DNA from: an uncultured bacterium | GTDB taxonomy: Bacteria; Zhuqueibacterota; QNDG01; DTFT01 | NCBI GenBank assembly: GCA_963736115.1 | Contig: CAVTNR010000014.1 | Coordinates: 96,001 to 160,000, forward strand | DNA: 64,000 bases | Direction of reading: 5' to 3' | Part shown: one piece after another, positions 3,901 through 58,752 of the stretch | How the letters are laid out: each line of letters starts with the position of its first letter | Position numbering within the stretch: position 1 is the first letter of the stretch | Translations under genes and position numbers: made by a program | The notes under the pieces: generated by a model | The model's database searches: none | Seen by the model: the letters and a program-made list of their open reading frames with translations, nothing else | What the model was told of the DNA's origin: nothing

Positions 3901-6900
3901 ACAGTCACGTTCCGCGTGGATGTGAAAATGCCGTCGGAGACGCTGATGGTGAAGGACCCGCTGTGGTCCTGCTCGCCCGGCGTGCCGGAAACGGTCGCGC
4001 CCGCGGACGTGAGCCATGGAGAAGCGTTCAGGATCTGGAAGGTGAGGACATCCCCGTCCGCGTCGGTCGCGGTCGCCGTATAGGAGAAGGGCGCGTCCTC
4101 GGTCGCCGAGGCCGTTGCCGGGGACGTGATCTGCGGGGCGCTGATCTGAACCGTGAAGGTCCATTCAGCGGAAGTGCGGACGTTTCCCGCGACATCGTAG
4201 GCCAGGACCTTCCAATTATGCGTCCCGTTCGCCAGCGCGTCCGTCAGCGTGAGCGTCGTGTCGGTGAGCCCGAGGAATCCGACCTTGAGGACGCCGTCGA
4301 GGTAGAATTCGAATTTCCAGAATTGGGACCGGCTGTCCGAAGTGGAATGCCAGCGGTAGGACGGCTTGTTGGTGTGTACGGTGCTCCCGGCCGCGGGCGC
4401 GATCAGGGTGAAAGGGGCCGGCGGCGTGGCGTCGCTGTTGAACCCCCACTGGGCCGAGTTCTCCCCGTTTCCCGCCCGGTCCAGAGCCCGGACGAACCAT
4501 GTGTGACTGCCGTCCGCGAGCGGAGCCGTCAGCGTGGCGGTGGTTCCCGTGATGCCCGAGACCTGAACCGACCCGTCTACATAGAGCTGATAGGACTGGA
4601 TGCCGGAGCGGGCATCCGTGGCCGCGTTCCAGGTGAAGGTCGGCAGGGCCTGATTCACCCAGTTCCCGTTGGCCGGCGAGACCGGCACGGGCGCGGTGGG
4701 CTTGGTCGCATCCACGCCGATGATACGGGCCGCAGTCGAGGTTCTGACGTTGCCCGCATTATCGAAGGCGCGGACGCTCCAGGTATACGACCCCTCCGCC
4801 AGGGCCTGGGCGTCCGTGAGCGTCACCGATGTCGAAGACGGCGGAATATTGTCCACCCGTACGGCGCCGTTCACGATCAGCTGATGCTTGGCAAGCCCGC
4901 TGCCCGCGTCGGACGAAGCGGCCCAGGTTAAAACCGGCGTGGTATCCGCGGTCCACGCTTCGTTCGCGGGTGACACGAGCGTGAAGGCCGCGGGCTTCAC
5001 CGAATCGGCCTTGACCGTCCAGGTCTGGGTGGATTTCCGGACATTCCCCGCGTTGTCCACGGCATTGACGTACCAGGTGTGGGTTCCCATGGTCAGGGCG
5101 ACGGAAGACGTGGATGTCGTACCGGACGGGATGTTGTCCAGTTTGAGCAAATTGTCCACGAACAGCTGGTATTTGCCGAGGCCGGCAATGCCCACGTCGG
5201 TCGTGGCCTGCCATTGAAAGACCGGATTGGCCGTCACGACCCACTGATTGTCCGCCGGGGCCGTCAGACTGAACGCATTCGGCGCGCTCTGGTCGTCCGA
5301 CGTGTTGATGCGCCAGGTCTGGCTTGCTGTCCGGACATTCCCGGCCACGTCCACGGCCTTGATGGTCCAGGTATGGAGTCCGTTCGACAGCTTCTGGCCC
5401 TCCGTGAGCGTGCTGGAGGTGGTCGTCAGGTTGTCCAACAGCAGATTCGAGTCCACCCACAGCTCATAATGGAATCCGCCGGAGAGGTTGTCCGAGGTGG
5501 CCTGCCATGTGAAGGTCGGCGTCGGGTCGTCCGACGCGTTGTCCGCGGGAGAGACCAGGTTGAACGCGGCGGGCGGCGTTGAGTCGATGATGAACAGCGG
5601 CGAGAGGAATTCGTCCGCGACCAGCCCCTTGTCGTTGACCGCCTGGATCTTCAGGCGGACATTCTCGCTGTTCACGGTGGAGGGTGTCCAGGACAGGCTG
5701 ACGGCCGACTTGGATACGTTCGTGTTCACGGTCACGGGATAGTTGTCCCCGGGCGTGACCGAAGCCTTCACCGCCAGGTGATGGAACAGGCCGGACGTGA
5801 ACCGGTTGGTCCATGTGATCGTGTGGGCCTGGTCGCCCCGCCACCGTTCGCCCGCGGCTGGAGCGGTGAAGGCGATCACGTCGTTGACCAGCAGTCCATA
5901 AACATCCGCTTTTCCGGCGGTCCGGCCGTCCTGCCACACCGTGATCATTCCGCCGGAACCGTCGGACACGGCGGTCTGGTTCTGCTGGCTGCCGGTCCGG
6001 GTGACGATCGGGAGGCCCCGGTCGCCCCACTGGCGGGCGCCGTTTCCGTTGATCCGCTGGGCGAAGAGTTCGATGTCGGATCCGGTTTCATTGTCGTTCC
6101 AGACGACGATCGCGCCCTGGGATCCGTCGGGCACGGCCTCGGGCGAGTATTGGAGCCCGGCGGACGCGTTGACTACCACGCCGTCCGCGGTCCACTGGAC
6201 GGCGCCGGCCGCGCTTACGCGCTGGGCGTAAATATCGTATCCCGTCCGGTTGTCGCACCACGTCACGACCGCGCCGCCCAGACCGTCCCCCGTGATCCGG
6301 CTGGTATACTGCGCGTTCACGGCCGCGCACACGGCGACGCCGTTTCCGGTCCAGCCCAGGCCTCCGGATACGTCCACGGCCTGCGTATAGATATCCGAAG
6401 ATGCGCCCCTGGAATCATCCCAGCAGACGACCCATCGTGTGCCGGACAACGCGATGCGGGGCGTCATCTGGTTTCCGGCCGCGTCGCAGAGGACTTTTCC
6501 GTTGGAAACGAAAACAGCGGAACCGGAGGCATTGATGCGTTGAACGTAGATGTCGTAATTTGTCAGGGACTGCCGGTTGTCCTGCCAGACAATCATCACT
6601 CCGCCCGCGTTGTCCAATGTGACGCTGTGCGAGGACTGGGAGTTGACGGCCGTGCACACGGCCACGTCATTGGCGTCCCATTGTTTGACGCCGGACGCGT
6701 TCATGCGCTGGGCGTAGAGGTCAGGCGATGAACCGTTGCGTTTGTCCTGCCAGACGACGATCACGCCGCCGGCCCCGTCCGATTCGGCCCTGGGCTGGGA
6801 CTGCTCGCCGGTCTTGTTGCAGAGGGATATCCCATCCGTTCCCCACAGTTTCGCGCCGGAGGAATCGAGACGCTGGATGAACAGATCGCCTGAGAGCGTG

Positions 6901-7265
6901 TCCTCCCAAGCCGCATAAACGCCCCCGGATCCGTCCGCCGCGAGCGTGGCGTAACGCTGGTTTCCGGCCGCGCTGATCACGGCGACACCCGTGCCCCAGC
7001 GGAGCGCGCCGGAGGCGTCCAGCCAGTTTATATAGATATCCTTATCCACGGCGGGCCGCACTTCCCAGGCAAAAAATACGCCTCCATGACCGTCCGGAAC
7101 CGCCGCGACATGCGCTGTGGAAACGCCGGTTGAACCGAGAAATTGACCGTCTTCTGTCCATTGAGTTTGCGCCTGCAGAATACGGGGTGTTGACCAGGAG
7201 AGGATGAAGAGGACGAACAGTGTCCGATTGATCCCTCTGGATTGAAATTTTGTCACGGCTGTCAT
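915..7265 (-). CDS. large secreted repeat protein: beta-propeller-like N-terminus, FN3/Ig-like domains, cadherin-like/putative Ig repeats, T9SS-type C-terminal sorting domain
   Basis: Signal peptide; repeated WxDxR...DIYAQR blades; 'PTFTW' ~95-aa modules; VNDPP/VNDAP repeats; C-terminal NYPNPFNP...ASGLYF...RMMLVR. Confidence 0.88.
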   Translation of the reverse strand: MTAVTKFQSRGINRTLFVLFILSWSTPRILQAQTQWTEDGQFLGSTGVSTAHVAAVPDGHGGVFFAWEVRPAVDKDIYINWLDASGALRWGTGVAVISAAGNQRYATLAADGSGGVYAAWEDTLSGDLFIQRLDSSGAKLWGTDGISLCNKTGEQSQPRAESDGAGGVIVVWQDKRNGSSPDLYAQRMNASGVKQWDANDVAVCTAVNSQSSHSVTLDNAGGVMIVWQDNRQSLTNYDIYVQRINASGSAVFVSNGKVLCDAAGNQMTPRIALSGTRWVVCWDDSRGASSDIYTQAVDVSGGLGWTGNGVAVCAAVNAQYTSRITGDGLGGAVVTWCDNRTGYDIYAQRVSAAGAVQWTADGVVVNASAGLQYSPEAVPDGSQGAIVVWNDNETGSDIELFAQRINGNGARQWGDRGLPIVTRTGSQQNQTAVSDGSGGMITVWQDGRTAGKADVYGLLVNDVIAFTAPAAGERWRGDQAHTITWTNRFTSGLFHHLAVKASVTPGDNYPVTVNTNVSKSAVSLSWTPSTVNSENVRLKIQAVNDKGLVADEFLSPLFIIDSTPPAAFNLVSPADNASDDPTPTFTWQATSDNLSGGFHYELWVDSNLLLDNLTTTSSTLTEGQKLSNGLHTWTIKAVDVAGNVRTASQTWRINTSDDQSAPNAFSLTAPADNQWVVTANPVFQWQATTDVGIAGLGKYQLFVDNLLKLDNIPSGTTSTSSVALTMGTHTWYVNAVDNAGNVRKSTQTWTVKADSVKPAAFTLVSPANEAWTADTTPVLTWAASSDAGSGLAKHQLIVNGAVRVDNIPPSSTSVTLTDAQALAEGSYTWSVRAFDNAGNVRTSTAARIIGVDATKPTAPVPVSPANGNWVNQALPTFTWNAATDARSGIQSYQLYVDGSVQVSGITGTTATLTAPLADGSHTWFVRALDRAGNGENSAQWGFNSDATPPAPFTLIAPAAGSTVHTNKPSYRWHSTSDSRSQFWKFEFYLDGVLKVGFLGLTDTTLTLTDALANGTHNWKVLAYDVAGNVRTSAEWTFTVQISAPQITSPATASATEDAPFSYTATATDADGDVLTFQILNASPWLTSAGATVSGTPGEQDHSGSFTISVSDGIFTSTRNVTVTVQQVNDAPVITSPLGAIATEKVLFTYTATASDPENDPVTFEFRNLPAWLAVSGPNQVSGTPANGTPNGTFTLIASDGTLTDTKQVSVLVNQVNEAPVITSGATAAAIEHQTFTYTATAVDEDGDALTFSFQDYPAWMSFTGAVISGTPGEGAGGGHTFRINVTDGFVTSSKVVTVNVTPVNDPPVISSPATAAATEHQAFSYTAAATDPEGTAIVWDFVDHPAWLSHTGAVISGTPPEGVPASFTFKIVASDGALAAERTVTVNVTRVNDPPVISSPATAAATEHQAFSYTAAATDPEGTAIVWDFVDHPAWLSHTGAIISGTPPEGVPASFTFKIVASDGALASERTVTVNVTRVNDAPVITSPATAAATEHQAFSYTAAATDPEGTAIVWDFVDHPAWLSHAGAVISGTPPENGPVTFTFKIVASDGALAAERVVTVTVTAVNDPPVVTSAATAAATEHQAFSYTAAGTDPEGTAIAWDFTDHPAWLSHTGAVLSGTPPEGVPASFTFKIVASDGALSAERTVTVTVTLVNDAPVITSPATAAAVEHQIFSYTAAGTDPEGTSIVWDFVDHPAWLNHAGAVVSGTPPENGPVTFTFKIVASDGSLASERIVTVTVTPVNDPPVFACPDTVTAVEDVRFIYTARASDPEADTFRFTFHRLPSWLRASDSTATGMIPENAVDTCFVLAVTDSRNASDSMRVFIRVQPVNDPPRVTSPDTAEAFENQVFSYTATAFDVDGPHYSIRFTDVPAWLTASGPMLSGVPVNVPPTATFSVIVNDGSLSDTLLVTVLIRPVNDPPRFVMPFPDPSFGLSETLQWQLVLNDYITDPDDPDTSLFWTSRLLDSVRVGISIHQKTGTATFLGFNVDKNFRVLFTVRDRGGLTASDTLYIRILGTGVDAERIGAPPDRYTLYGNYPNPFNPQTTIRYGLPRPGPVRLRVLNLRGQVVATLVDGRQAAGVFEVAWRTDGEASGLYFAVIEAEGWKKVQRMMLVR
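2041..3360 (-). repeat. five intragenic 264-bp (88-aa) tandem repeats
   Basis: TCATTGAC (VND codons) recurs at 2032, 2296, 2560, 2824, 3088 and 3352; units are highly similar at DNA level. Confidence 0.9.
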
Positions 7266-7435: not shown

Positions 7436-7467
7436 TTCCTTTCATTCTTTTCTGAAAGATTAAAAAA

Positions 7468-9042
7468 ATCAAAAACACGCAAAAAATCCGCGGTAAGATT
7501 CTCTGGGCCGACGATGAAATCGACATGCTGAAGCCCCATATTCTCTTTCTGGAAGAGAGGGGGTATGATGTCACGCCCGTCACCAATGCCGAGGATGCCC
7601 TGAGCCTCACCCGGCAGGAGCGGTTCGACATCATCCTGCTCGATGAAATGATGCCCGGCATGGACGGACTGCAGGCGCTCCGTCTGCTCAAGGAAAATGC
7701 GCCCTCCATCCCCGTGGTCATGATCACGAAGAGCGAGGAGGAGAACCTGATGAATGAGGCGATCGGCGGTCAGATTGAGGAATACCTGACCAAGCCGGTC
7801 AATCCCAGTCAGGTTTTCTCCTCTTGCATGAGGATTCTGGAGAAACAGAAGATATCCGGGGAGAAACTGACCCGGGATTACACGGCCGAATTCAGCGAAA
7901 TCGCCTCCCTTATGGACGGCCCGATTCCGGCCGAAGGCTGGATGAACATCCACCTGAAGCTGTGCGAACGTGAACTCGATCTGGACGAGCATCCCGACCT
8001 GGGGCTCCGCCAGACCCTGCAGGACCAGAGGCGTGAATGCAACGCCGCCTTCAGCCGTTTTGTAGAGGAGCAATATGCGTCCTGGGTGCGTTCGCAGCCG
8101 GACAACCGGCCGGTCCTTTCCTCGGACGTGATCCGCAAATCCGTCCTTCCTCTCCTTTCCGGAGATCGTCCAGTTCTCTTCGTGGTTGTGGACAACCTGC
8201 GGCTTGATCAGTGGCTGGCCATCGAACCCCTGATGTATCCTTTCTTCTCCATCCGCCGGGAACTGTACTTCTCGATACTGCCGACGGCGACGCCCTATTC
8301 GAGAAACAGCCTGTTCGCGGGCTGTTTTCCGGCCGAGATCGAAACCCGGTTTCCCGATTTCTGGCGGGACGGCGAGGACGATGAATCGAGCCGGAATCGG
8401 CACGAGCACCAGCTGCTTGATGCCCAGCTCGCCCGGCTGGGCGTCAAGCTTCGGCAGGAACTCCGCTACACCAAAATCATGGATTCCGAGGAAGCCTGGA
8501 ACACCGCGAAACACGCCCAGTCGCTTTTTAGCTCGCCCCTGACCGCGCTTGTGTTCAATTTTGTGGACCTGCTCGCGCACAAGCGGAGCGGCTCCGACAT
8601 CCTCAGGGAAATCGTTCCCGACGAATCGGCGTATCGCTCCCTGACGCGTACATGGTTCGAGCATTCGGCGCTCTTCCAGATTCTCCGGGCCGCGTCGGAA
8701 TCCGGGGTCCGTGTCGTCCTGACGTCGGACCATGGCTCGCTCAGGACCATGCGCGGCGCCACGGTTTATGCCGACAAGGAGACATCCACCAACGTGCGGT
8801 ACAAAATCGGGCGCGCCATCAAATGCGATCCGAAACAGGCCATTTCCCTGAAGGATCCCGGGAAATTCGGCCTTCCGGCCCGGGGCATCAGCGCCAATTA
8901 CCTGCTCGCCCGGGAGGACTACTACTTCGTTTATCCGACCAATTACCACAAGTACCTGTCGCTGTACCGCGACAGCTTCCAGCACGGAGGCGTGTCCCTC
9001 GAGGAAATGGTGCTTCCGCTGGTGACTCTGACGGAACGGTGA
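7468..9042 (+). CDS. porX: PorX-type response regulator (receiver + PglZ/alkaline-phosphatase-like domain); start uncertain and non-canonical
   Basis: KILWADDEIDMLKPHILFLE receiver start, LLDEMMPG, SILPTATPYSRN, TSDHG, FQHGGVSLEEM; followed by tsaE as in Bacteroidota. No ATG/GTG/TTG between the in-frame TGA at 7453 and the conserved motif. Confidence 0.88.
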   Translation: MKNTQKIRGKILWADDEIDMLKPHILFLEERGYDVTPVTNAEDALSLTRQERFDIILLDEMMPGMDGLQALRLLKENAPSIPVVMITKSEEENLMNEAIGGQIEEYLTKPVNPSQVFSSCMRILEKQKISGEKLTRDYTAEFSEIASLMDGPIPAEGWMNIHLKLCERELDLDEHPDLGLRQTLQDQRRECNAAFSRFVEEQYASWVRSQPDNRPVLSSDVIRKSVLPLLSGDRPVLFVVVDNLRLDQWLAIEPLMYPFFSIRRELYFSILPTATPYSRNSLFAGCFPAEIETRFPDFWRDGEDDESSRNRHEHQLLDAQLARLGVKLRQELRYTKIMDSEEAWNTAKHAQSLFSSPLTALVFNFVDLLAHKRSGSDILREIVPDESAYRSLTRTWFEHSALFQILRAASESGVRVVLTSDHGSLRTMRGATVYADKETSTNVRYKIGRAIKCDPKQAISLKDPGKFGLPARGISANYLLAREDYYFVYPTNYHKYLSLYRDSFQHGGVSLEEMVLPLVTLTER

Positions 9043-9046
9043 ACGG

Positions 9047-9508
9047 ATGGCCGGTCCGGAGCTGATTGGGTCGGAGAGCCGCGAGGATACGCTGAAAGCC
9101 GGGGAGGCGTTTTCGAAGCGGCTGGTTCCCGGCGATGTGGTCGCGCTGAACGGTGAGCTGGGCAGCGGAAAAACGGTGTTCATCCAGGGGGTGTGCGCCG
9201 GCCTGGGGGTTCGGGAAACCGTCACCAGTCCGACCTTCACCCTCCTTCAGGAATACACGGGTCGGCTCAGGGTTTTTCATTTCGATTTCTACCGGCTGGA
9301 ATCGGTTGAGGCTGTCGCGGCGCTCGATTTGACGGCCGCGTTCGAGGGCGGAGGGGTCTGTCTCATCGAGTGGGCCGAACGGGGCCGGCCGCTGCTTCCT
9401 TCGGACCGTTTCGAAGTGGAACTCGACCCCGTTTTCGAGAGCGGCCAGCCGTGCCCGGACAAGCGCCGTATCCGCATCCTTGCCCCTGCCGGCCGGGAGG
9501 CTGTCTGA
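9047..9508 (+). CDS. tsaE: tRNA t6A biosynthesis ATPase TsaE
   Basis: GELGSGKT, VTSPTFTL, HFDFYRL, IEWAE. Confidence 0.95.
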   Translation: MAGPELIGSESREDTLKAGEAFSKRLVPGDVVALNGELGSGKTVFIQGVCAGLGVRETVTSPTFTLLQEYTGRLRVFHFDFYRLESVEAVAALDLTAAFEGGGVCLIEWAERGRPLLPSDRFEVELDPVFESGQPCPDKRRIRILAPAGREAV

Positions 9509-10179
9509 CTGTCATTCTCGGCATCGAGACCGCCACGCCGGTCTGCTCGGTGGGGCTTGCCCGGAGCGAAGGACCGGCCGGTGAAATCAGCGTTGAAGCG
9601 GCGAACGCGGCCGCGGAACGCCTCCCGGACTGTGTGCGTTCGGTGCTGTCCGCGGCCGGCCTGACGCCCGCGTCCCTGGACGGGGTGGCGGTCTCCATCG
9701 GCCCCGGATCCTACACGGGTCTGCGCATCGGCCTGTCGTTCGCAAAAGGCATCTGTTTCGCGGCCGGCAAACCGATCGCCGCGGTGCCCACGATGGACGC
9801 CTGGGTTCGGATGGCGCCGGCGGTTCTGCCCACGGCCTGCGTGCTGATGCACAGCCGCAAAGGCGAGGTGTTCCGAGCCGTGTACCGGGCGGTCAGCGGC
9901 CGATGGGAGAGATTGGGCGGATTCGAAGCGGTTCCGGTCGAAGGCCTGGCCGGCGGGCTTCCCGCGGGGCCTGTGCTGTTTCTCGGCGACGGTAGCCGGA
10001 AACACCGCGAAGCCATTGAGGGAATGCTCCCGGACGCCCGGTTTCCGGAGGGCGTCGGTCCGAATCCCAGCGGCGTACAGGTCGCAGTGATCGGCGGGGA
10101 AATCCTGGCCGCCGGAGGCGCGGCGGACCCGGACACGCTTTCGCCGATGTACCTTCAGAACTTCCAGGGCATGCCGTGA
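9505..10179 (+). CDS. tsaB: tRNA t6A biosynthesis protein TsaB (probable CTG start)
   Basis: ILGIETAT, VSIGPGSYTGLRIG; CTG overlaps the tsaE stop (CTGA), with GGGAGG upstream. Confidence 0.92.
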   Translation: MTVILGIETATPVCSVGLARSEGPAGEISVEAANAAAERLPDCVRSVLSAAGLTPASLDGVAVSIGPGSYTGLRIGLSFAKGICFAAGKPIAAVPTMDAWVRMAPAVLPTACVLMHSRKGEVFRAVYRAVSGRWERLGGFEAVPVEGLAGGLPAGPVLFLGDGSRKHREAIEGMLPDARFPEGVGPNPSGVQVAVIGGEILAAGGAADPDTLSPMYLQNFQGMP

Positions 10180-11645: not shown

Positions 11646-12416
11646 ATGGCCCGAAAACCCATCATCCTCCTGACCAATGACGACGGCATCTCCGCGGCCG
11701 GCATATACGCGCTGCACCGGGAACTGAGCCGGATCGCGGATGTCTCGGTCATCGCGCCCTACACCGAGCAGTCCGCCGTGGGCCACGCCATCACCATCCA
11801 CGATCCTCTCAGAGTCTGGGAGTTCGAGAAGAACGGAAAGCTGTTCGGACACGCGGTCACCGGAACGCCCGCGGACTGCGTCAAGATCGGATACTGGGCG
11901 CTGATGCGGAAAAAGCCCGACCTCGTCGTCTCGGGCATCAATCTGGGACCCAACACCGGAATCAATACGATCTATTCGGGCACGGTTTCCGCGGCCACCG
12001 AGGGCTCTTTTCTCGGCGTGCCCTCCTTTGCCGTGTCCCTCGCCACGTACCGGGATCCGGATTTCCGGTACGCGGCGCGCTTCGCCGCCCGGCTGGCCGT
12101 CCGCCTGCACCGCGAGGGCCTGCCGCGCGGCATCTACCTCAACGTCAATGTTCCGAACCTCCCTGAAAAGGCGATCCGCGGCGTGCGGATCACGCGGCAG
12201 GGCCTCGCCCCGTGGCGCGAGGAGTTCGACCGGAGAACCGATCCCAGCGGCCGGACGTATTTCTGGCTCACCGGGCAGAAGATGAATCAGGAGAAAGAGC
12301 TGGACGTGGATGACGGGGCCGTGTCCGCCGGTTATGTGGCCGTTACCCCCGTGCATTACGATCTCACCCAGTATGGATTCATGGACCGTCTCAAGTCCTG
12401 GAAACTCGAAAAGTAG
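11646..12416 (+). CDS. surE: 5'/3'-nucleotidase SurE
   Basis: [27 protein letters not shown]. Confidence 0.96.
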
Positions 12417-12427
12417 GAGGATGCCGC

Positions 12428-13960
12428 ATCGCGCCGGAAGAGAAAATTCTGATCCTGGATTTCGGCTCCCAGTACACCCAGCTCATCGCCCGACGGGTCC
12501 GCGAACAGAAGGTGTTCTGCGAAATCGCGCCGTTCAATATCCCGGCCGGAGAAATACGCGCCCAGTCGCCGAAAGGGATAATTCTGTCCGGGGGTCCGTC
12601 CTCCGTCTATGCCCCGGCCGCGCCCATCCCGGACCGGGATCTTTTCAGCCTGGGGATACCGGTGCTCGGCATCTGTTACGGCCTCCAACTGATGGCACAC
12701 CTGCTCGGCGGGCAGGTGGACCGTGCCGCACTGCGGGAATACGGACCCGCTGATTTTTCCGTGGACGACGACGCGGACCTTTTCGCCGGGCTCTCGCCCG
12801 GATTCGGGGTCTGGATGAGCCACGGCGACCACCTGGAGTCCATGCCCGCCGGGTTCGTCCGGCTCGGGCACACCGAAAACGCGGCGCTGGCCGCCATGGC
12901 GGACCGGTCCCGGAACCTGTACGGCGTCCAGTTCCACCCCGAAGTGGCGCATACGCCCAGGGGCGACGAGGTCCTGAGGAATTTTCTCGTCGCGGTCTGC
13001 GGCTGCCGCTGCGACTGGACGGCCGAGCACTTCGTCGAGTCGGCCGTTTCCGCGATACGCGGCCGCGTCGGCCGGGACCGGGTGCTGTGCGGACTGTCCG
13101 GAGGGGTGGATTCGGCCGTCACCGCGGCGTTGATCCACAGCGCCGTGGGAGACCAGCTGACCAGCGTGTTCGTGGACAACGGAATGCTCCGGAAAGGCGA
13201 ATGGGACGAGGTCCGGCGCGCGTTCCGGCATCTCAACCTCGTATCCGTGGACGCCTCCCGTGACTTTCTCTCGGACCTGGATGGAGTCACGGATCCCGAG
13301 GAGAAGCGCAAGCGGATCGGCAAGCGCTTCATCGACGTATTCGAGGCGGAAGCCGCGAAAATCGGGGGCGTGCGTTTTCTCGGACAGGGCACGCTTTATC
13401 CGGACGTCATCGAGAGCGTTTCGACCTGGGGGCCCTCGGCCAAGATCAAGTCGCACCACAATGTCGGGGGCCTTCCGGAGCGGATGGGGCTGAAACTGGT
13501 CGAGCCGCTCCGCGAGCTTTTCAAGGACGAGGTGCGGGCTGTCGGCCGCGTGCTCGGCCTGCCTTCCGAAATTCTCGACCGGCATCCGTTTCCCGGTCCC
13601 GGGCTGGCCGTCCGCGTCCTGGGGGAGGTGACCGAACCGAGGCTTGCCATCCTGAGGGAGGCGGACGCGATCTTTATCCATGAACTCCGGCGTTCCGGCT
13701 GGTACGACCGGGTCTGGCAGGCCTTCACCGTTCTTCTGCCGGTTCAGACCGTGGGCGTGATGGGCGATGAGCGCACATACGAGCACGTGGCGGCCCTGAG
13801 GGCCGTGACCAGCATCGACGGCATGACCGCGGACTGGGCGCGGCTTCCGGATGAGCTGACCGCCCGGGTTTCGAACCGGATCATCAACGAGGTCAAGGGC
13901 ATCAACCGCGTCGTAATGGACGTCAGCTCGAAACCCCCGGCGACGATTGAATGGGAGTAA
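12428..13960 (+). CDS. guaA: GMP synthase (glutamine-hydrolysing); probable ATC start
   Basis: Conserved N-terminus [21 protein letters not shown] lies upstream of the listed GTG 12512; [26 protein letters not shown]. Confidence 0.95.
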
Positions 13961-14230: not shown

Positions 14231-16063
14231 ATGTGCGGAATAGTCGGCTACGTCGGTGAACGTCAGGCGCTTCCCATTCTCATCAGCGGGTTGAAACGGC
14301 TCGAGTACCGGGGGTACGATTCGGCCGGCGTCGCAATGATCCGGGACGGTTCCATCTGGTCCGACAAGAAGAAGGGCCGGATTAGCGACCTCGAACTCAG
14401 CCTCGCGAAGCAGCCGTCCGACGGGTTCCTGCCCGTCGGCATCGCGCACACGCGGTGGGCCACGCACGGCGCGCCTTCCGACGTGAACGCGCATCCCCAT
14501 TTCGACTGCAAGCGGAACATCGCCGTGGTGCACAACGGCATCATCGAGAATTACGCCGAGATCCGGCGCGGTCTCATCGAAAAAGGCCACGTATTCGTCT
14601 CCGAAACCGATTCCGAGGTGCTGGCCCATTTGATCGAGACATTCGACCGGGGCGACATGGTCGCCGCCATCCAGCAGTCGCTTCATCTCGTCCGGGGCAC
14701 GTTCGGCATACTCGTCCTGACGTCCCGTGAGCCCGACCGGCTCTACGCGGCCCGGCGGGGGAGCCCGTTGGTCATCGGTCTGGCGGACGACGAGAATCTC
14801 GTGGCTTCCGACGGTTCCGCCCTGGTCGAGCACACCAAGAAAGTGATCTACCTTTCGGATGACGAGATGGCCGCCATCGACCGCCGCGGCGTCCAGGTCC
14901 GGACCCTTCAGGACAGCCGGGTTTCGAAATCCGTCGAACAGCTGTCCTTCGGTCTCGAACAGATCCAGAAGGGCGGTTACGACCATTTCATGCTCAAGGA
15001 GATCTTCGAACAGCCCGAGACGATCGGCGACTCCATGCGCGGGCGGCTTCTTCCGGACGAAGGACGCGCCAAACTCGGCGGGCTGGAGGGCTATCTCGAG
15101 CGGATCCGGAACAGCGAGCGCATCATCATCACGGCCTGCGGCACGTCCTGGCATGCCGGTCTGATCGGCGAATATCTGATCGAGAAACTCGCCCACATTC
15201 CCGTGGAAGTCGAATACGCTTCCGAGTTCCGCTACCGCGATCCCATTCTTTCGCGGAACGACACCGTGATCGCGATCAGCCAGTCCGGCGAAACCGCGGA
15301 CACCCTCGCGGCCGTGCGGGAGGCCCGGCAGAAGGGCGCGCTCGTCCTCGGCCTCTGCAATGTGGTCGGCAGTTCGGTCGCCCGCGAGACGGCGGCGGGA
15401 GTCTACCTGCACGCCGGGCCCGAGATCGGAGTCGCCTCCACCAAAGCCTTCACATCCCAGGTCGCCGTACTCAGTCTGATCGCGCTGGCCCTCGGCCGGA
15501 TGACCTCGCTCTCGAACGACGAGGGCCGGCTCATGGTCCAGGAACTGATGTCCATCCCGGACAAGATCCGCGCCATCCTGGGACAGACGGACCGGATCCT
15601 GGCGCTGGCCCGGAAAATGACGGAAAAACGCAACGCGCTGTACCTGGGACGGGGATTCAATTACCCCGTGGCTTTGGAGGGCGCGTTGAAGATGAAGGAA
15701 ATTTCGTACATCCACGCCGAGGGGTACCCGGCCGCGGAGATGAAGCACGGGCCCATCGCCCTGATCGACGAGGACATGCCGGTTGTTTTCCTCGCGGTGA
15801 AGGACCCCGTGTATGAGAAGGTGCTGAGCAACATCCAGGAAGTGAAAGCGCGGGGCGGCTGGGTCATCGCGGTGGTCAATTCCGGCGACCGGGACGCCGC
15901 CCGGAACGCGGACGAGGTCATCGAAATCCCCGAGACGTCACAGCCTCTCTCGCCGATGCTGACCGTAATTCCCCTTCAGCTGCTGGCCTATCACACCGCC
16001 GTCCTGAAAGGCTGCGACGTGGATCAGCCGAGAAATCTCGCCAAAAGCGTCACCGTGGAATAA
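14231..16063 (+). CDS. glmS: glutamine-fructose-6-phosphate aminotransferase
   Basis: MCGIVG, HTRWATHG, SQSGETAD, PRNLAKSVTVE. Confidence 0.97.
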   Translation: MCGIVGYVGERQALPILISGLKRLEYRGYDSAGVAMIRDGSIWSDKKKGRISDLELSLAKQPSDGFLPVGIAHTRWATHGAPSDVNAHPHFDCKRNIAVVHNGIIENYAEIRRGLIEKGHVFVSETDSEVLAHLIETFDRGDMVAAIQQSLHLVRGTFGILVLTSREPDRLYAARRGSPLVIGLADDENLVASDGSALVEHTKKVIYLSDDEMAAIDRRGVQVRTLQDSRVSKSVEQLSFGLEQIQKGGYDHFMLKEIFEQPETIGDSMRGRLLPDEGRAKLGGLEGYLERIRNSERIIITACGTSWHAGLIGEYLIEKLAHIPVEVEYASEFRYRDPILSRNDTVIAISQSGETADTLAAVREARQKGALVLGLCNVVGSSVARETAAGVYLHAGPEIGVASTKAFTSQVAVLSLIALALGRMTSLSNDEGRLMVQELMSIPDKIRAILGQTDRILALARKMTEKRNALYLGRGFNYPVALEGALKMKEISYIHAEGYPAAEMKHGPIALIDEDMPVVFLAVKDPVYEKVLSNIQEVKARGGWVIAVVNSGDRDAARNADEVIEIPETSQPLSPMLTVIPLQLLAYHTAVLKGCDVDQPRNLAKSVTVE

Positions 16064-16074
16064 TGGAGGCTTTC

Positions 16075-18147
16075 ATGAATCTGTCAGCGAGCGTATTCCC
16101 CGCGGCCCGCTTCGCGGGATCAAGCTGTTTGATAGCTGCATTATTGAAGACTTGCCGCGGGGATAGCGAGCGAATAACAGATGTCTCTGCTCTACGGATA
16201 GAAGCTTCCCCGGCTTCGCCGGACCAAGCAACTAGATTCTCTCTGGTTGAAGGCCCGCCGCTTGCCTTCATCCAGAAGGCATATAATAGCTTGGTCCCGC
16301 GCAGCGGGACGGCGGGGAGCTTCAAATCCCGCAGACTTTTCGCGTCCGTCGCCGTCTTCCTGGCCGTACTCGCGGCCGGCAGCCTCACGGCGGCGACCGC
16401 CGAATCCCCGGACAGCGTGTTTTCCGCGGCGGTCTCCGCCTACAAAGCCGGACGCAACGCGCAAGCGCTTTCCGCGCTCGAGGCGCTGGACACGAAACAG
16501 CCGGGTCACAGCCTGACTACGGCTTCGCTTCTCATGCAGGCGAAGGCGCTGTCCCGCATGGGCGAGAGCCAGCGCAGCCGCGAAGCGTTTGAGGAGCTCA
16601 TCCTCGCGCATCCCCGGAGCGGTTATGTCGACGACGCGCGCTACGGGCTCGCCGATCTTCTGTACCGGCGCAACGACGCGCGCGGATCGCTGCTGCAGCT
16701 GCTGTCGCTGATCGCCGGCGGCGGGAACCGGGCGCTGGTTGAAAAGGCCGAGGCCCGCGGCCAGGAAATCATGGAATTCCATTTCACGACGGAGGAACTC
16801 CGCAGTCTGGTGCGGGACGTGCCCGATGAGAAAGGGAAGGCCTTCGTGACGCTGACGGCCGCGCGGCGGAACATCCAGGACCGCCGCTTCGAGACCGCCC
16901 GGACCGACCTCGACCATTTTCTGCGCTCGGCCCCGGACAATCCCTACGCGTCCCAGATGGAGAAACTGCTCGGACGGGCGGAATCGCTGGGCAAGGGCAC
17001 GGCCGTGATCGGCGTCATCCTTCCGCTGTCCGGGCCCCTGGGGGACCAGGGCGGCCAGGTGCTGGCGGGCATCCAGTACGCGGTCAAGATCAACAACGAG
17101 AAGATGCAGCTCAAGTTCGAACTGCTGGTCCGGGATTCGGAGGGCAGTCCGGTGCAGGCGATCCGGGCGGCCCAGGAAATCTGCCGCAACAACGACGTGG
17201 TGACGGTGATCGGCGACCTGGACAGCCATCTCTCAGAGTCCGTGGCCGCGGTGGCCCAGGAGAATGAGGTGCCCTGCATCGCGCCGCTGGCGATGTCCGA
17301 CGGGATGACCGGCATCGGTCCCTACGTCTTCCAGTTGAACGGCACGCTCGGCGACCGCGGACGCGTACTGGCGGAGTACGCCTGCTCCTCGCTGGGGCTG
17401 AAACGCTTCGCCATGCTCACGCCGGGAGACGCCTACGGCCGGGTGCTCCGGAAGGCTTTCGCGGAGGAAGTCGCCCGTTCAGGCGGGGAGATCCTCGCGG
17501 ATCGGACATACACGGAGGATATAAAGGATTTCAGCCCGATCCTGGCCTCCATCCGCGAAGCCGGTCTCAAGCGGTTCCTGCAGGACAGTGTGCGCGCGGT
17601 CCGGGGCGATGTCTCCGGCGAGATCGTGAAAGGCGCGATCGACCGGAAAGCCTCCCGGATGCTTGACAATCGGGACATTCCGGTGCGGTCCGTGGAAGGC
17701 TTTTTCATCCTGCCCAACCGCGGCAGCCTGGAATCCATTCTGGCCCAGATCCACTATCAGAATCTGGAGACCCAGCTTCTGGCCGGCTCCTCGCTGGACG
17801 ACCTGTCCGTGCTGCTCGGGCGGAAGGAGTTGCTCGACGGCATCGTTTTTTTCAGTGAATATTTCGCCGACCCCTACAGCCCGCGCGTGGCCGCCTTCCG
17901 CGCGGGATTCCGGAAGGAGTCGGGCCGGAATCCCGGCAGCATGGAAGCCATCGGATACGACGCCGCATCGGTCGTGCTTGAGGCCATGGGCGACAAAACC
18001 ATGCCCCGCTCCGAAATCCGGGATGCCCTCGCGGCCGTCCGCAATCTGGACGGCATACGCGGCAAAATTTCATTCGACGGGAATCGCGTCAATTCGGCTT
18101 TCCGCCTTCTGCAGTTCCGGGAAGGCCGCGTGGACATGGTTCGGTAG
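16075..18147 (+). CDS. TPR + periplasmic-binding-fold (LppC/LpoA-like) envelope protein with a repeat-derived N-terminal extension
   Basis: GGAGG SD 5 nt before ATG 16075; signal peptide KSRRLFASVAVFLAVLAA from 16324; TPR-like helices; IGVILPLSG...GYDAA...GKISFD fold. Confidence 0.75.
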   Translation: MNLSASVFPAARFAGSSCLIAALLKTCRGDSERITDVSALRIEASPASPDQATRFSLVEGPPLAFIQKAYNSLVPRSGTAGSFKSRRLFASVAVFLAVLAAGSLTAATAESPDSVFSAAVSAYKAGRNAQALSALEALDTKQPGHSLTTASLLMQAKALSRMGESQRSREAFEELILAHPRSGYVDDARYGLADLLYRRNDARGSLLQLLSLIAGGGNRALVEKAEARGQEIMEFHFTTEELRSLVRDVPDEKGKAFVTLTAARRNIQDRRFETARTDLDHFLRSAPDNPYASQMEKLLGRAESLGKGTAVIGVILPLSGPLGDQGGQVLAGIQYAVKINNEKMQLKFELLVRDSEGSPVQAIRAAQEICRNNDVVTVIGDLDSHLSESVAAVAQENEVPCIAPLAMSDGMTGIGPYVFQLNGTLGDRGRVLAEYACSSLGLKRFAMLTPGDAYGRVLRKAFAEEVARSGGEILADRTYTEDIKDFSPILASIREAGLKRFLQDSVRAVRGDVSGEIVKGAIDRKASRMLDNRDIPVRSVEGFFILPNRGSLESILAQIHYQNLETQLLAGSSLDDLSVLLGRKELLDGIVFFSEYFADPYSPRVAAFRAGFRKESGRNPGSMEAIGYDAASVVLEAMGDKTMPRSEIRDALAAVRNLDGIRGKISFDGNRVNSAFRLLQFREGRVDMVR
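16076..16324. mobile_element. palindromic repeat composite containing three 45-bp mini-element insertions (16106-16150, 16210-16254, 16265-16309)
   Basis: Blocks shared with 29841-30136 and 62901-63020; removing the units restores TCCCCGCGGC-TT-GCCGCGGGGA and GAAGCT(T)CCCCGCCGC-TT-GCGGCGGGGAGCTTC. Confidence 0.8.
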
Positions 18148-25616: not shown

Positions 25617-26201
25617 ATGGTCCTGGCCACGCGGAATGCGGATAAAGTGGCGGAAATCAGGCGCATTCTGCGGCTTCCCCCCGGCGGTCTGGCCTCCCTC
25701 CTGGATTATCCGGAAATCCCGGAAATTGAAGAAACGGGTCTGACGCTCGAGGACAATGCGCTCATCAAAGCGAGGGAGTCGCACAAGCGGACGGGCCTGC
25801 CGTCCCTGGCCGACGACACGGGGCTGGAGGTGGAGGCACTGAAGGGCGCGCCGGGCGTTTTTTCCAGCCGTTTCGCCGGACCGGACGCGAGTTACGCGGA
25901 CAACCTGCTGAAGCTTCTCCGGGCAATGGAGGGGATACCCGAGGGCAGCCGTCAAGCGCGGTTCCGTTGTGTTGTGGCGCTCAAAGCGGGGGCACGCGAG
26001 GAATGGGTGGAGGGGAACCTCGAGGGCGTTATCCTGAGAGAATCGCGGGGCACGGGCGGATTCGGATACGATCCGGTCTTTTTCATCCCCCAGGCGGGCA
26101 AAACCCTCGCGGAGATGTCCATGGAGGAGAAGAACGCGGTCAGCCACAGGGGCGTCGCGTTCAGGCGCATGGCACAACTGCTCGCGGAAAGGCCGCTTTA
26201 A
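25617..26201 (+). CDS. rdgB: non-canonical purine NTP pyrophosphatase (RdgB/HAM1)
   Basis: LATRN.K, ADDTGL, GFGYDP.F, KNAVSHR. Confidence 0.95.
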   Translation: MVLATRNADKVAEIRRILRLPPGGLASLLDYPEIPEIEETGLTLEDNALIKARESHKRTGLPSLADDTGLEVEALKGAPGVFSSRFAGPDASYADNLLKLLRAMEGIPEGSRQARFRCVVALKAGAREEWVEGNLEGVILRESRGTGGFGYDPVFFIPQAGKTLAEMSMEEKNAVSHRGVAFRRMAQLLAERPL

Positions 26202-56876: not shown

Positions 56877-56889
56877 ACCAGGGAGGCAC

Positions 56890-58752
56890 ATCAAGACGGC
56901 GCTTTCCCGAGGGATTTCCCTTTACGCCCTGTTCCTCTTCGGAACCGCGTTCGCCGGCGACTGCCGCCTCCGGATCGGCACGAACCTCGCGGGACCCGCG
57001 GACTGGGGCTCCGAGTGGCCCTTCGTGGATATCATGAAATACTCCCGGTCCTGGATCACCTTCAATTCCGTATGGCTGGAGGAGGGCGAAAATCCTTGGG
57101 ACACCGGCGCGGTGGACCGGATTCCAGCGGATGATAACGGCTATCCACTGGAACTGCCGTTTACGGTCGCGGGAACGGAGACGACCCAGGTCGTGCGCAC
57201 GGTCTGGGCCAACACATCCAGCCTCCCGGAGGGCGTCTATACGGTCCTATACGACGGGGAAGGGACGATCGATGTGGAGTTCGACGGTTCGATCCTAAGC
57301 CGCGAACCGGGCCGCGTCCTTTTTAATTTGAGACACCGCGATGATATTCTGTCCCTGAATCTCTTCGAATCCCGCAAGGGCAATCATGTCCGCAACATCC
57401 GGGTTCTGATGCCCGGAATGGAAGCCACGCACACGGACCAGCCCTGGTGCGCGGAATGGCTGGAAAAGCTGGAGCCTTTCCGTGCCCTGCGTTTCATGGA
57501 CTGGGGCCTGACCAACAATTCCACTTTGAAACAGTGGGAAGACCGGCCGCATATCGATGACTACACCTACACCCTGCGGGGCGTGCCGTACGAGTGGATG
57601 ATCCACATCTGCAACCGGAAAAAGGCCGACTGCTGGGTCTGCATTCCGCACGAAGCGGACGATCTCTATATCCGGAGCATGGCCGAATTGTTCCGTGACG
57701 GGCTGGATCCTTCGCTGAAGATTTATGTCGAATACTCGAACGAGACATGGAACTGGATGTTCGATCAGACCCACTGGTTGTTCGAAAACGGGAACCCCGG
57801 CGTCGAATGGCCGGAGCGCATCGTCCCCTTCATCCAGAACAGCCTGGACATCTGGTCGGATGTTTTCAGCGGCCAAACCGACAGGCTGGTCCGTACGGTC
57901 GGCGTACAGGGGTCCTGGCAGGACGTCAGCAACCGAGTGGTTTTCAATATGCGGCCCGGCAGTTTCGACGCTTTCTCGCCGGCCGCCTATTTCGGATTTC
58001 CTGATTCGGCGATCGCGGCTCTCTCGAGTCTCGGTGAGGCGGCCACGGCCGTGGATGTCCTGTATTGGGCGCGGCAGTCCGTGACCGGACAGTCCTCCTC
58101 CTGGCTCCGGTCCCAGTTCGAGACGATTTCGCGGCCGACCGGCCTGCCGATGATCTATTACGAGGGCGGCCAGCATCTCACGCCGGATCCTTTCGGTTCC
58201 GATCAGCCGTACGGCCGGGCGCTGATGGACGCCCAGATCCATCCGGATATGTATGACCTGTATGCCCAATGGTTCGATACCCTGGCCTCGTTCGTGCCGG
58301 ACGGCGGCACCGGCCTGCTGATGAATTTTTCGTTCATCGGGGAAAGGGACGGAAAATACGGAAGCTGGGGTGTGCTCGAAAGCCAGTTTCACCAGAGCCC
58401 TCCGTACCGAGAGACCGCGCCCAAGTATCAGGCGATACTTGACGCGCTCTGCGATCCGGGTTCCGGTATATCCCGCACCGACCTCAGGCGGGACGGGCTG
58501 TCCCTGTCCCTGAATCCGAATCCGTTCAACGCATCCGTGCGGATCCGTTTTTATCTTCCGGATCGACAGAGGGTCACGCTGACCGCATTCGACGCACGGG
58601 GCCGCAGAATCGCTGTGCTGATGGATGAAGAACGGCCCGCGGGCGAAACCGTGAAGCATTGGGACGCTTCCTCTTTTGCATCAGGGCCGGTCCTGATCCG
58701 GCTGAAGGCCGGACCGCGTACCGAGACAAGGAAATGCCTGCTGATCAGATAA
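56890..58752 (+). CDS. secreted putative glycoside hydrolase with T9SS-type C-terminal domain; ATC start
   Basis: ATC after GGGAGG yields signal peptide (M)KTALSRGISLYALFLFGTAFA; LRFMDW, YVEYSNETWN, YEGGQH; LNPNPFNA. Confidence 0.8.
   Translation: MKTALSRGISLYALFLFGTAFAGDCRLRIGTNLAGPADWGSEWPFVDIMKYSRSWITFNSVWLEEGENPWDTGAVDRIPADDNGYPLELPFTVAGTETTQVVRTVWANTSSLPEGVYTVLYDGEGTIDVEFDGSILSREPGRVLFNLRHRDDILSLNLFESRKGNHVRNIRVLMPGMEATHTDQPWCAEWLEKLEPFRALRFMDWGLTNNSTLKQWEDRPHIDDYTYTLRGVPYEWMIHICNRKKADCWVCIPHEADDLYIRSMAELFRDGLDPSLKIYVEYSNETWNWMFDQTHWLFENGNPGVEWPERIVPFIQNSLDIWSDVFSGQTDRLVRTVGVQGSWQDVSNRVVFNMRPGSFDAFSPAAYFGFPDSAIAALSSLGEAATAVDVLYWARQSVTGQSSSWLRSQFETISRPTGLPMIYYEGGQHLTPDPFGSDQPYGRALMDAQIHPDMYDLYAQWFDTLASFVPDGGTGLLMNFSFIGERDGKYGSWGVLESQFHQSPPYRETAPKYQAILDALCDPGSGISRTDLRRDGLSLSLNPNPFNASVRIRFYLPDRQRVTLTAFDARGRRIAVLMDEERPAGETVKHWDASSFASGPVLIRLKAGPRTETRKCLLIR

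Follow-up and report, generated by a model that had tools for sequence, protein, structure and literature searches.

Probable near-cognate start codons of porX, tsaB, guaA and a secreted-protein gene in an uncultured bacterium of the Zhuqueibacterota

Do porX and tsaB of this uncultured bacterium begin at codons other than ATG, GTG and TTG, and do such starts point to relaxed initiation throughout the lineage? The earlier note had proposed both from the sequence. It suspected altered IF3, initiator tRNA or 16S stringency, and suggested a genome-wide start-codon census and an inspection of infC and tRNA-fMet. The window is the whole analysed stretch of 64,000 nucleotides. The studied genome (G000) was compared with three genomes of the same genus (G001–G003), a genome of the sister genus (G004) and further relatives. 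The sequence observation of the earlier note was right at every coordinate. Near-cognate starts in these genes gained support from the ATG or GTG of congeners at the same codons and from the conserved guaA ATC; lineage-wide relaxed initiation did not. It is likely that these are genuine near-cognate starts, single-base derivatives of canonical codons that are read at low efficiency by an ordinary initiator tRNA. What we infer from sequence is that initiation takes place at these codons, how efficient it is and how sensitive to IF3.

The starts of porX and tsaB

The two genes flank tsaE. The features are:

7453..7455, + strand: in-frame TGA closing the porX frame upstream, also in G001–G003
7459..7461, + strand: ATT, most likely porX start; ATG in G001 and G003, ACA in G002
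7468..7488, + strand: alternative porX near-cognates ATC 7468 and ATC 7486; ATC or ATT in 4/4 genus genomes
7459..9042, + strand: porX coding sequence, T9SS response regulator with receiver and PglZ domains (NCBIfam NF052313; Pfam Response_reg and PglZ)
9047..9508, + strand: tsaE (TIGR00150, E 5e-33), with a stop TGA (9506–9508) that overlaps the tsaB start
9495..9500, + strand: GGGAGG Shine-Dalgarno (SD) motif of tsaB, 4-nt spacer to CTG; GGGAGG or GGGAGA in congeners
9505..9507, + strand: predicted CTG start of tsaB in a CTGA overlap; GTG (GTGA) in G001–G003
9505..10179, + strand: tsaB coding sequence (TIGR03725, residues 4–217 against profile 1–211/212)

PorX matched the NCBIfam equivalog NF052313 with 671 bits (cut-off 300) over profile positions 2–513 of 513. 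KSB1 and Calditrichota, the closest groups with a name, share 54–60% PorX identity with it. Downstream of the TGA at 7453, the codons are AAG, ATT (7459), AAA, AAA, ATC (7468), AAA, AAC, ACG (7477), CAA, AAA and ATC (7486). They are followed by CGC, GGT, AAG, ATT (7498), CTC, TGG, GCC, GAC, GAT and GAA. The first in-frame ATG, GTG or TTG is ATG 7525, codon 24 of the open frame, and the Pfam receiver domain begins to align at codon 15 (profile 1–106/111). This codon reading confirmed that porX has no ATG, GTG or TTG between the TGA and the receiver domain. A canonical start would therefore cost the protein beta-strand 1 and the DD pair, since the receiver N-terminus is encoded upstream of ATG 7525. 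An SD motif was not found for porX; its leader is A-rich and folds weakly (−8.9 kcal/mol, z −0.7). Because of the missing SD motif and the ACA of G002 in the ATT column, the true start could be ATC 7468 or ATC 7486. The latter agrees with the family-typical PorX N-terminus, in which profile position 2 corresponds to residue 13 counted from ATT 7459.

TsaB gave a full-length match to the TIGR03725 equivalog (127 bits, cut-off 69), and the neighbours are tsaE and rimI (TIGR01575). By homology, the putative start is placed at 9505. Two in-frame GTGs lie 5′ of the CTG, at 9451 and 9370, both inside tsaE. The codon at 9451 is GTG in G000–G002 and GCT in G003; it could be an alternative start. The CTG in a CTGA overlap behind GGGAGG stood as previously described, while the statement that tsaB needs a non-canonical start is not strict, given these two GTGs. 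A hairpin predicted across SD motif and CTG (−28.3 kcal/mol, z −1.1) was not significant, and at none of the four starts in the window did the predicted RNA fold differ from shuffles (z −1.1 to +0.5).

Probable near-cognate starts in other genes and their history

Further genes in the window contribute the following features:

12416..12421, + strand: GGAGGA SD motif of guaA, sharing its first G with the end of the surE stop TAG; 6-nt spacer to ATC
12428..12430, + strand: ATC start of guaA, in 4/4 genus genomes; ATA in G004
12428..13960, + strand: guaA coding sequence (NF000848, 784 bits, residues 7–510 against profile 1–512/512)
25617..25619, + strand: ATG start of an rdgB-type XTP/dITP diphosphatase gene, canonical here; CTG in G003
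56881..56886, + strand: GGGAGG SD motif in the sequence, 3-nt spacer to ATC 56890
56890..56892, + strand: ATC start of the 56890 gene, which encodes a secreted protein with a T9SS-type tail; ATG AAA ACG in G001 and G003
56890..58752, + strand: coding sequence of the 56890 gene

The guaA ATC is conserved together with its SD motif in 4/4 genus genomes and is identical in a contig of public run X1 covering 12338–12488. GTG 12512, the first canonical codon, comes only after a 10-residue N-terminal motif. The ATC aligns 2–3 codons away from the ATG of order-level relatives. Ten codons upstream of it, a column of ATG, GTG or CTG was read as synonymous wobble in a Ser codon of surE, whose frame overlaps there, rather than as a start. 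The 56890 protein had no Pfam or NCBIfam family match, and the first canonical codon of its gene sits behind the signal peptide. The gene could also start at ATT 56872 instead of ATC 56890; this ATT overlaps the preceding stop as ATTAA. Order-level relatives have ATG, GTG or TTG at porX (26/26), tsaB (26/26) and guaA (24/25 outside the genus).

Three observations recur among the four genes. A canonical start ahead of an essential N-terminal element is lacking in porX, guaA and the 56890 gene, and not strictly so in tsaB. The starts of porX, tsaB and the 56890 gene fall on the codon at which orthologues in same-genus genomes start canonically. GGAGG is located 3–7 nt upstream of the start in guaA, tsaB and the 56890 gene.

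Outside the window, wecB starts with ATA here and with ATG in G001–G003. In 3/3 matching genus genomes, ispF starts at a CTG that overlaps the end of ispD as CTGA; G004 has TTG. A HAD hydrolase gene starts with CTG in 4/4 genus genomes, whereas G004 and five others have TTG. The infC gene starts with ATT 7 nt after GGAGG, within an infC-rpmI-rplT operon. The genus is the GC-richest in the sampled order (61–65% at these loci vs. 32–62% for others), and this fits a drift from TTG to CTG and from ATA to ATC.

Four start changes are private to G000: ATG to ATT in porX, GTG to CTG in tsaB, ATG to ATC in the 56890 gene and ATG to ATA in wecB. All four landed on ATH or CTG, and all lie inside 82 kb of one contig. 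Simple drift does not predict this clustering. The private codon changes of G000 were mostly synonymous (porX 41:13, tsaB 11:2, 56890 gene 50:16, wecB 15:1, guaA 31:4), with similar ratios in the other three genomes. Hence porX, tsaB and the 56890 gene are still under purifying selection.

Initiation machinery, genome-wide counts and assembly quality

The tRNA-fMet on contig C9 has the three anticodon-stem G:C pairs (G29–31:C39–41) and the C1:U72 mismatch, both intact. The 3′ tail of the 16S rRNA, GGATCACCTCCTTTCT, is canonical, with an intact anti-SD. These are the features of tRNA-fMet and 16S rRNA that matter for initiation stringency. IF3 is full-length with IF3_N and IF3_C domains and aligns over its whole length to solved IF3s (E 6e-50). 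Its gene has an ATH start behind a GGAGG-type SD motif in 28/28 relatives with a match, and in 24 of these 28 no canonical codon occurs from the SD motif to the IF3_N domain. Alterations of IF3, initiator tRNA or 16S rRNA were thus not borne out: infC and tRNA-fMet turned out to be ordinary, contrary to relaxed initiation, and so did the 16S tail. The start-codon proofreading machinery looks ordinary. With a conventional machinery, translation of these genes is probably weak and IF3-sensitive, with low product levels that depend on IF3.

Gene finder and start-codon census were home-made, and the near-cognate count is a lower bound. Genome-wide screens supported near-cognate starts in at least 8 of 2,543 predicted genes (~0.3%). 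Within the window, 4/43 predicted genes with a coding start inside it begin at a near-cognate codon, in line with the 4 of about 45 counted previously. A blind four-genome comparison detected private near-cognate changes in 3/36 window genes vs. 0/89 genes elsewhere. Relative to the rest of the genome, near-cognate starts exceed chance in the window. The census, with its small genome-wide number and the absence of private changes from the 89 genes outside the window, speaks against relaxed initiation. Switches to near-cognates amounted to 5 lineage events in 125 sampled genes. Among canonical codons, 2/75 all-canonical columns were mixed, and another sample had 2 further switches; both kinds of switches were about equally common in the sampled genes.

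GGAGG-led ATH or CTG codons were at chance level genome-wide, with 21 observed vs. ~25 expected, a rough estimate from codon frequencies. An SD-led census upstream of the first canonical start found no enrichment of ATT, ATC or CTG. ACG ranked top (12/585, p 0.012, uncorrected for 61 codons) and was judged to be noise after inspection of the 12 cases. A coding change-point screen yielded 170 genes with the first canonical start at least 10 codons inside the coding signal. Pfam scanning of the top 100 revealed mostly fragments from frameshifts, plus the programmed prfB shift. Near-cognate starts were supported for 6 of these 100 (infC, guaA, porX, the 56890 gene, wecB and ispF), a count that leaves out L385, L396, L399 and L453. 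An ATC with a 7-nt spacer, C26:25623, was dropped; the in-frame protein has a T9SS tail without a signal peptide. The four-genome candidates C22 minus 89673, C3 plus 76491 and C8 minus 146499 were resolved as canonical or internal.

The assembly contains many indel frameshifts, without an excess of substitutions in the window. G000-private substitutions per kb were 29–37 in the window vs. 27–47 in other regions, and the other genomes match. Frameshifted essential genes include rho, pyrG, carB and NAD kinase; the carB frameshift is specific to G000. The errors observed consisted of one-base insertions or deletions in short runs of G or C. Judged by the coordinates of their Pfam profile matches, at least 25 of the 100 ORFs scanned represent internal pieces of genes. 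Contigs of public runs X1–X4 do not cover 7459 or 9505, so the assembly is the sole source of these private bases. None of the public runs contained half of the sampled words, and the contigs of X2–X4 represented relatives only. Among the public runs searched, no RNA run contained the stretch.

Interpretation and known systems

The preferred explanation comprises several steps. An ordinary initiator tRNA would read AUU, AUC and CUG starts at low efficiency. A strong SD motif would help at guaA, tsaB and the 56890 gene, translational coupling via the CTGA stop/start overlap may help tsaB after tsaE, and the A-rich, weakly structured leader may help porX. The near-cognate starts would have arisen from ATG, GTG or TTG by single-base substitution. 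The ATC of guaA, the CTG of ispF and of the HAD hydrolase gene and the classical ATH of infC would be old and conserved in the GC-rich genus, and the changes in porX, tsaB, the 56890 gene and wecB would be private to G000.

A weakened proofreading by IF3, tRNA or 16S rRNA in the genus would allow free drift to near-cognates, with systematic misannotation. Near-cognates do occur in congeners (ACA at porX in G002, CTG at rdgB in G003), three starts besides infC are conserved genus-wide, and the five near-cognate events in 125 genes rival the canonical switches. A survey counted switches to CUG or AUU for only 3 of 61,358 AUG starts in 36 annotated triplets, 2 of 5,080 GUG starts and 1 of 2,468 UUG starts (Belinky et al. 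2017, Sci Rep, PMC5622118). Such a general drift is nevertheless quite unlikely: it would not spare all 89 genes outside the window, stop at the at least 8 supported cases in 2,543 genes or leave SD-led ATH and CTG codons at chance and pre-start regions without enrichment. The ATH start of infC in 28/28 relatives is sensible only if IF3 discriminates against ATH, and neither the G:C pairs of tRNA-fMet nor the anti-SD is altered. The limitation of the private changes to the best near-cognates indicates that selection still acts. A milder variant, unlikely as well, is a genus with raised tolerance for near-cognates, due to a subtly laxer IF3 or to selection that keeps the translation of a set of housekeeping and surface genes low and sensitive to IF3. 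It would concern guaA, ispF and the HAD hydrolase gene, and species-specifically porX, tsaB, wecB and rdgB. If true, switching into ATH or CTG would be tens of times commoner than in other prokaryotes, and the 82-kb clustering would be a real local process rather than chance.

The private codons ATT 7459, CTG 9505 and ATC 56890 might be sequencing or assembly errors of a metagenome-assembled genome. The frameshifts in essential genes, the G000-specific carB shift, the fragmentary ORFs and the dependence of 7459 and 9505 on the assembly fit this view. Yet the errors seen were indels and not substitutions, private substitutions are as frequent as in the other three genomes and no more frequent in the window than elsewhere, and further ordinary substitutions flank the tsaB and 56890 starts. 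By our own estimate, ~10^−5 errors per base would strike ~0.001 start codons in 43 genes. All four changes are functional near-cognates rather than random codons, and the guaA ATC recurs unchanged in three other assemblies and in the X1 contig; errors are a highly improbable source. It is also improbable, if less extremely so, that the genes with private changes are silenced or young pseudogenes, or are made from other starts, as a TsaB extended from GTG 9451 or as truncated proteins. PorX is required for type IX secretion as part of the PorX/PorY system, and many cargo proteins encoded by G000, with 17 matches to the C-terminal tail, would depend on this secretion. All frames are intact, with mostly synonymous private changes like those of congeners. 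With a start at ATG 7525 the receiver would lack its acidic pocket, with one downstream of the signal peptide the secreted 56890 protein would be stranded, and GTG 9451 is not conserved in G003. Silencing or other starts would be favoured by the GTGs upstream of tsaB, by its predicted, non-significant hairpin, which would hinder free initiation, and by the low output of such codons. In E. coli reporters described in a preprint, ATH and CTG initiate at 1–2% of AUG, ahead of the other 57 codons (10.1101/063800).

Genuine near-cognate starts have consequences for annotation. Standard callers admit only ATG, GTG and TTG and would therefore truncate porX, guaA and the 56890 protein. Lost would be the phospho-acceptor pocket of PorX, the head of the GuaA amidotransferase domain and the 56890 signal peptide. 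The same callers would lengthen tsaB by 18–45 residues into tsaE. Corrected starts are needed for annotating or expressing these genes from the lineage. The conserved guaA ATC, ispF CTG and HAD hydrolase CTG are candidates for weak start codons that fix a translational set-point.

The window holds a small local cluster of a known start-codon kind; a new initiation mechanism is not indicated. The starts resemble the AUU starts of infC, with its IF3 autoregulation, and of pcnB in E. coli, near-cognate ATH codons behind a good SD motif that are decoded by the initiator tRNA. These two genes are given in the preprint as the only confirmed non-canonical starts in E. coli (10.1101/063800). The differences are the genes concerned, guaA, ispF, a HAD hydrolase gene, porX, tsaB, wecB and a secreted-protein gene; that no regulatory logic is known here; and that half of the starts are private to one species. 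The switches agree with the counts of Belinky et al. (2017, PMC5622118) in being single-nucleotide changes between close relatives, with selection favouring AUG. Four private switches in ~2,500 genes of one genome are unlike that survey, although its annotated starts are not strictly comparable; reliance on annotated starts would hide near-cognate switches. Four-nucleotide ATGA and GTGA overlaps have the same geometry as tsaE-tsaB and ispD-ispF, with the SD motif inside the upstream gene. Re-initiation in E. coli, as described for that system, requires the initiator tRNA and is reduced by excess IF3 (PMC2268962). Unlike in ATGA and GTGA overlaps, the start codon inside the overlap is CTG, and compensation of the weak codon by coupling is putative. 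As in Mollicutes with translation table 4 and in mitochondria, ATH and CTG serve as starts. There, such starts are frequent and the initiation apparatus is altered; here, they concern ~0.3% of the genes, with a conventional tRNA-fMet, anti-SD and infC ATH.

Start codons in the window and in related genomes

Genes of the studied assembly (3.34 Mb, 31 contigs, 60% G+C, 87% complete) were predicted with a gene finder based on a simple codon-usage model, yielding 2,543 genes. The window occupies positions 96001-160000 of contig C14. Start regions were read in 30 related genomes: three congeners (G001-G003), one member of the sister genus and 26 genomes from the same order. Near-cognate starts, that is ATT, ATC or ATA (ATH) or CTG, head 4 of the 43 predicted window genes: porX (a type IX secretion response regulator), tsaB, guaA and the 56890 gene for a secreted protein. 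An earlier note had reported these four non-canonical starts; re-reading of the sequence confirmed the observation and all its coordinates.

tsaB: CTG 9505, in a CTGA overlap with the tsaE stop, 4 nt 3' of GGGAGG
guaA: ATC 12428, 6 nt 3' of GGAGGA
56890 gene: ATC 56890, 3 nt 3' of GGGAGG; alternative ATT 56872

The porX frame is closed upstream by TGA 7453, and the coding change-point of the gene finder is the first codon thereafter. The codons following the stop are AAG ATT AAA AAA ATC AAA AAC ACG CAA AAA ATC CGC GGT AAG ATT CTC TGG GCC GAC GAT GAA. The first canonical codon (ATG, GTG or TTG) in this frame is ATG 7525 at codon 24, the Pfam receiver domain begins at codon 15, and a curated PorX model (671 bits) matches with its position 2 at residue 13 counted from ATT 7459. 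For tsaB, the CTG with its CTGA overlap and GGGAGG stood up, but the claimed need for a non-canonical start had missed in-frame GTG codons upstream at 9451 and 9370, inside tsaE. Coding change-points fell exactly on CTG 9505 and on ATC 12428 of guaA. In guaA, the first canonical codon is found only behind a 10-residue motif; in the 56890 gene, a signal peptide precedes it.

At the exact site of ATT 7459, G001 and G003 have ATG, while G002 has ACA and is likewise without any canonical porX start; at each of the 26 other loci, an ATG stands 5-8 codons ahead of the KILW motif. The tsaB CTG is GTG (GTGA overlap) in all three congeners, and ATG, GTG or TTG in 26 of 26 other relatives. The 56890 gene begins ATC AAG ACG, compared with ATG AAA ACG in G001 and G003. 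The four genus genomes all share the guaA ATC with its Shine-Dalgarno sequence (SD). In the sister genus, ATA follows immediately on a stop, and the 24 other loci have a canonical start. The reverse case is an rdgB-type gene (window 25617), with CTG in G003 and ATG in the other three. Since congeners have ATG or GTG at the same codons, the near-cognate starts are, to judge from these alignments, single-base derivatives of normal starts, some old and some private to one genome.

Ten codons before the guaA ATC, an in-frame column (window 12398-12400) reads ATG in G002, GTG in G003 and CTG in the studied genome and G001. In the overlapping surE frame, this column falls on the wobble position of a Ser codon, so it is probably no start. 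The immediate upstream neighbour of porX, on the opposite strand (915-7265, minus), encodes a protein of 2,116 residues that has long, nearly identical internal repeats and a type IX secretion tail. ORF 16063..18147 includes in its 5' part (16076-16325) a segment of ~60-250 nt with dozens of copies, 70-95% identical, scattered over each of the three congener genomes. This segment could be a repeat element dispersed in the genomes or a coding module that recurs.

Frequency and distribution of near-cognate starts

Further near-cognate starts were detected outside the window; loci L481-L483 and L509-L512 cover ispF and the HAD hydrolase.

ispF: CTG, contig C2, minus strand, 60050 (script coordinates), overlapping the ispD stop as CTGA
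HAD hydrolase: CTG, contig C5, minus strand, 90574 (script coordinates), 3-4 nt 3' of GGAGGA
wecB-type epimerase: ATA, C14:185489

For ispF, each of the three genus genomes that gave a match has CTG in the CTGA overlap, and the sister genus has TTG. The HAD hydrolase starts with CTG in all four genus genomes; the sister genus has TTG, as do five others. The epimerase has ATG in G001-G003.

Genome-wide, codons that follow an SD and precede the first canonical start showed no enrichment of ATH or CTG. In a GGAGG-anchored screen, 476 genes had GGAGG close to the coding start. Of these, 370 have a canonical codon in frame at 3-11 nt downstream and 21 have only ATH or CTG, about chance level. N-terminal motifs back six of these 21 (guaA, infC, the 56890 gene, tsaB, ispF and the HAD hydrolase). 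A third screen sought coding signal before any canonical start, and the 100 highest-ranking ORFs were compared with Pfam. It supported six (infC, guaA, porX, the 56890 gene, the wecB-type epimerase and ispF) and left four unresolved; most others were frameshift fragments or the programmed prfB shift. The prfB gene (C11, minus strand, ~33520, script coordinates) has the classical +1 frameshift site of GGAGG, a 3-nt spacer and CTTTGAC. Altogether, at least 8 of 2,543 genes (~0.3%) have supported near-cognate starts, a minimum set by screens whose sensitivity is unknown.

In a blind comparison with G001-G003, 5' regions were aligned for all genes predicted within the window or within nine 20-kb regions at round coordinates, giving 125 genes with at least three genomes. 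Near-cognate changes private to the studied genome affected 3 of 36 window genes versus 0 of 89 outside; the chance of all three being window genes is ~0.02 (hand calculation from the counts). G002 and G003 had one such change each and G001 none, all in window genes. All four private changes of the studied genome (porX ATT, tsaB CTG, 56890 ATC, wecB-type ATA) lie within 82 kb (C14:103459-185491, from window 7459 to 25 kb past the window end). This clustering has no explanation beyond chance and the selection of a striking window by the earlier note. A G001 locus aligned to C8, minus strand, 146499 has an in-frame TGA 20 codons into a conserved 250-residue gene (GGA in the studied genome and G002, CGA in G003), for which a nonsense mutation, an error or recoding may account.

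Initiation apparatus and sequence errors

In E. coli, an ATH start behind an SD on infC is the basis of IF3 autoregulation. The infC-rpmI-rplT operon of the studied genome has ATT as the infC start, 7 nt 3' of GGAGG. A match to infC was obtained in 28 relatives, and in every one the gene starts with ATH preceded by a GGAGG-type SD (by reading, ATT in 21, ATC in 6 and ATA in 1); 24 of the 28 have no canonical codon between SD and IF3_N domain. This conserved arrangement argues that IF3 still discriminates against near-cognate codons. The initiator tRNA (contig C9) has three anticodon-stem G:C pairs and a C1:U72 mismatch, the 16S rRNA 3' end reads GGATCACCTCCTTTCT, and IF3 aligned full length to solved IF3s (E 6e-50). 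At the level of anticodon-stem pairs, 16S 3' end, infC start and IF3 length, the suggested alteration of IF3, initiator tRNA or 16S rRNA is not visible.

Sequence errors and dead genes were considered as alternatives. The assembly does have defects, among them genes split by single-base frameshifts where G or C forms a short run:

C12:84482, rho
C14:30894, pyrG
C9:101054, carB
C12, minus strand, 147198, NAD kinase
C30:97508, fucose synthase

By Pfam coordinates, at least 25 of the 100 scanned ORFs were internal fragments, including infB, the gyrA C-terminus, AcrB, PFOR and H+-PPase. The carB shift is in none of the three congeners. The split essential genes are most likely indel errors of assembly. 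The defects seen are indels, not substitutions. Private substitutions amounted to 29-37 per kb in the window versus 20-47 in other regions, similar to the other genomes, and were not raised in the stretch with private start changes. Private codon changes were mostly synonymous (synonymous:nonsynonymous, porX 41:13, tsaB 11:2, 56890 gene 50:16, wecB 15:1, guaA 31:4), so the affected proteins are under selection. All private start changes fell on ATT, ATC, ATA or CTG, the four codons that in E. coli reporter assays are reported to reach 1-2% of the AUG level and to exceed the other 57 codons (10.1101/063800). A contig of run X1 is identical to the guaA start region (window 12338-12488); none of the public runs aligned to the window reaches 7459 or 9505.

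Origin and extent of the near-cognate starts

Initiator tRNA would read the near-cognate codons with one mismatch, and output would be low and fall as IF3 rises. Partial compensation may come from coupling and from strong SDs: strong SDs at 3-7 nt precede guaA, tsaB, the 56890 gene, ispF, the HAD hydrolase and infC, and CTGA overlaps link tsaE-tsaB and ispD-ispF. The porX leader is A-rich with a weak fold. At the porX and guaA loci, the genus has the highest G+C content of the sampled order (61-65%; others 32-62%). Together with TTG in the sister genus at both conserved CTG starts (ispF, HAD hydrolase), this suggests that already weak starts drifted under GC pressure.

Lineage-wide relaxed initiation, as proposed from the four window genes, found no support, given at least 8 of 2,543 genes, no private change among the 89 genes outside the window and a conventional apparatus. 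Standard annotation will mis-call the starts of these genes. A survey of annotated genomes reported switches to CUG or AUU in 3 of 61,358 AUG starts (PMC5622118). Against that figure, four private switches within a single genome would be frequent, but the survey was blind to unannotated starts. As read from the genomes, the near-cognate starts are a local cluster of a known start-codon kind in an uncultured lineage.
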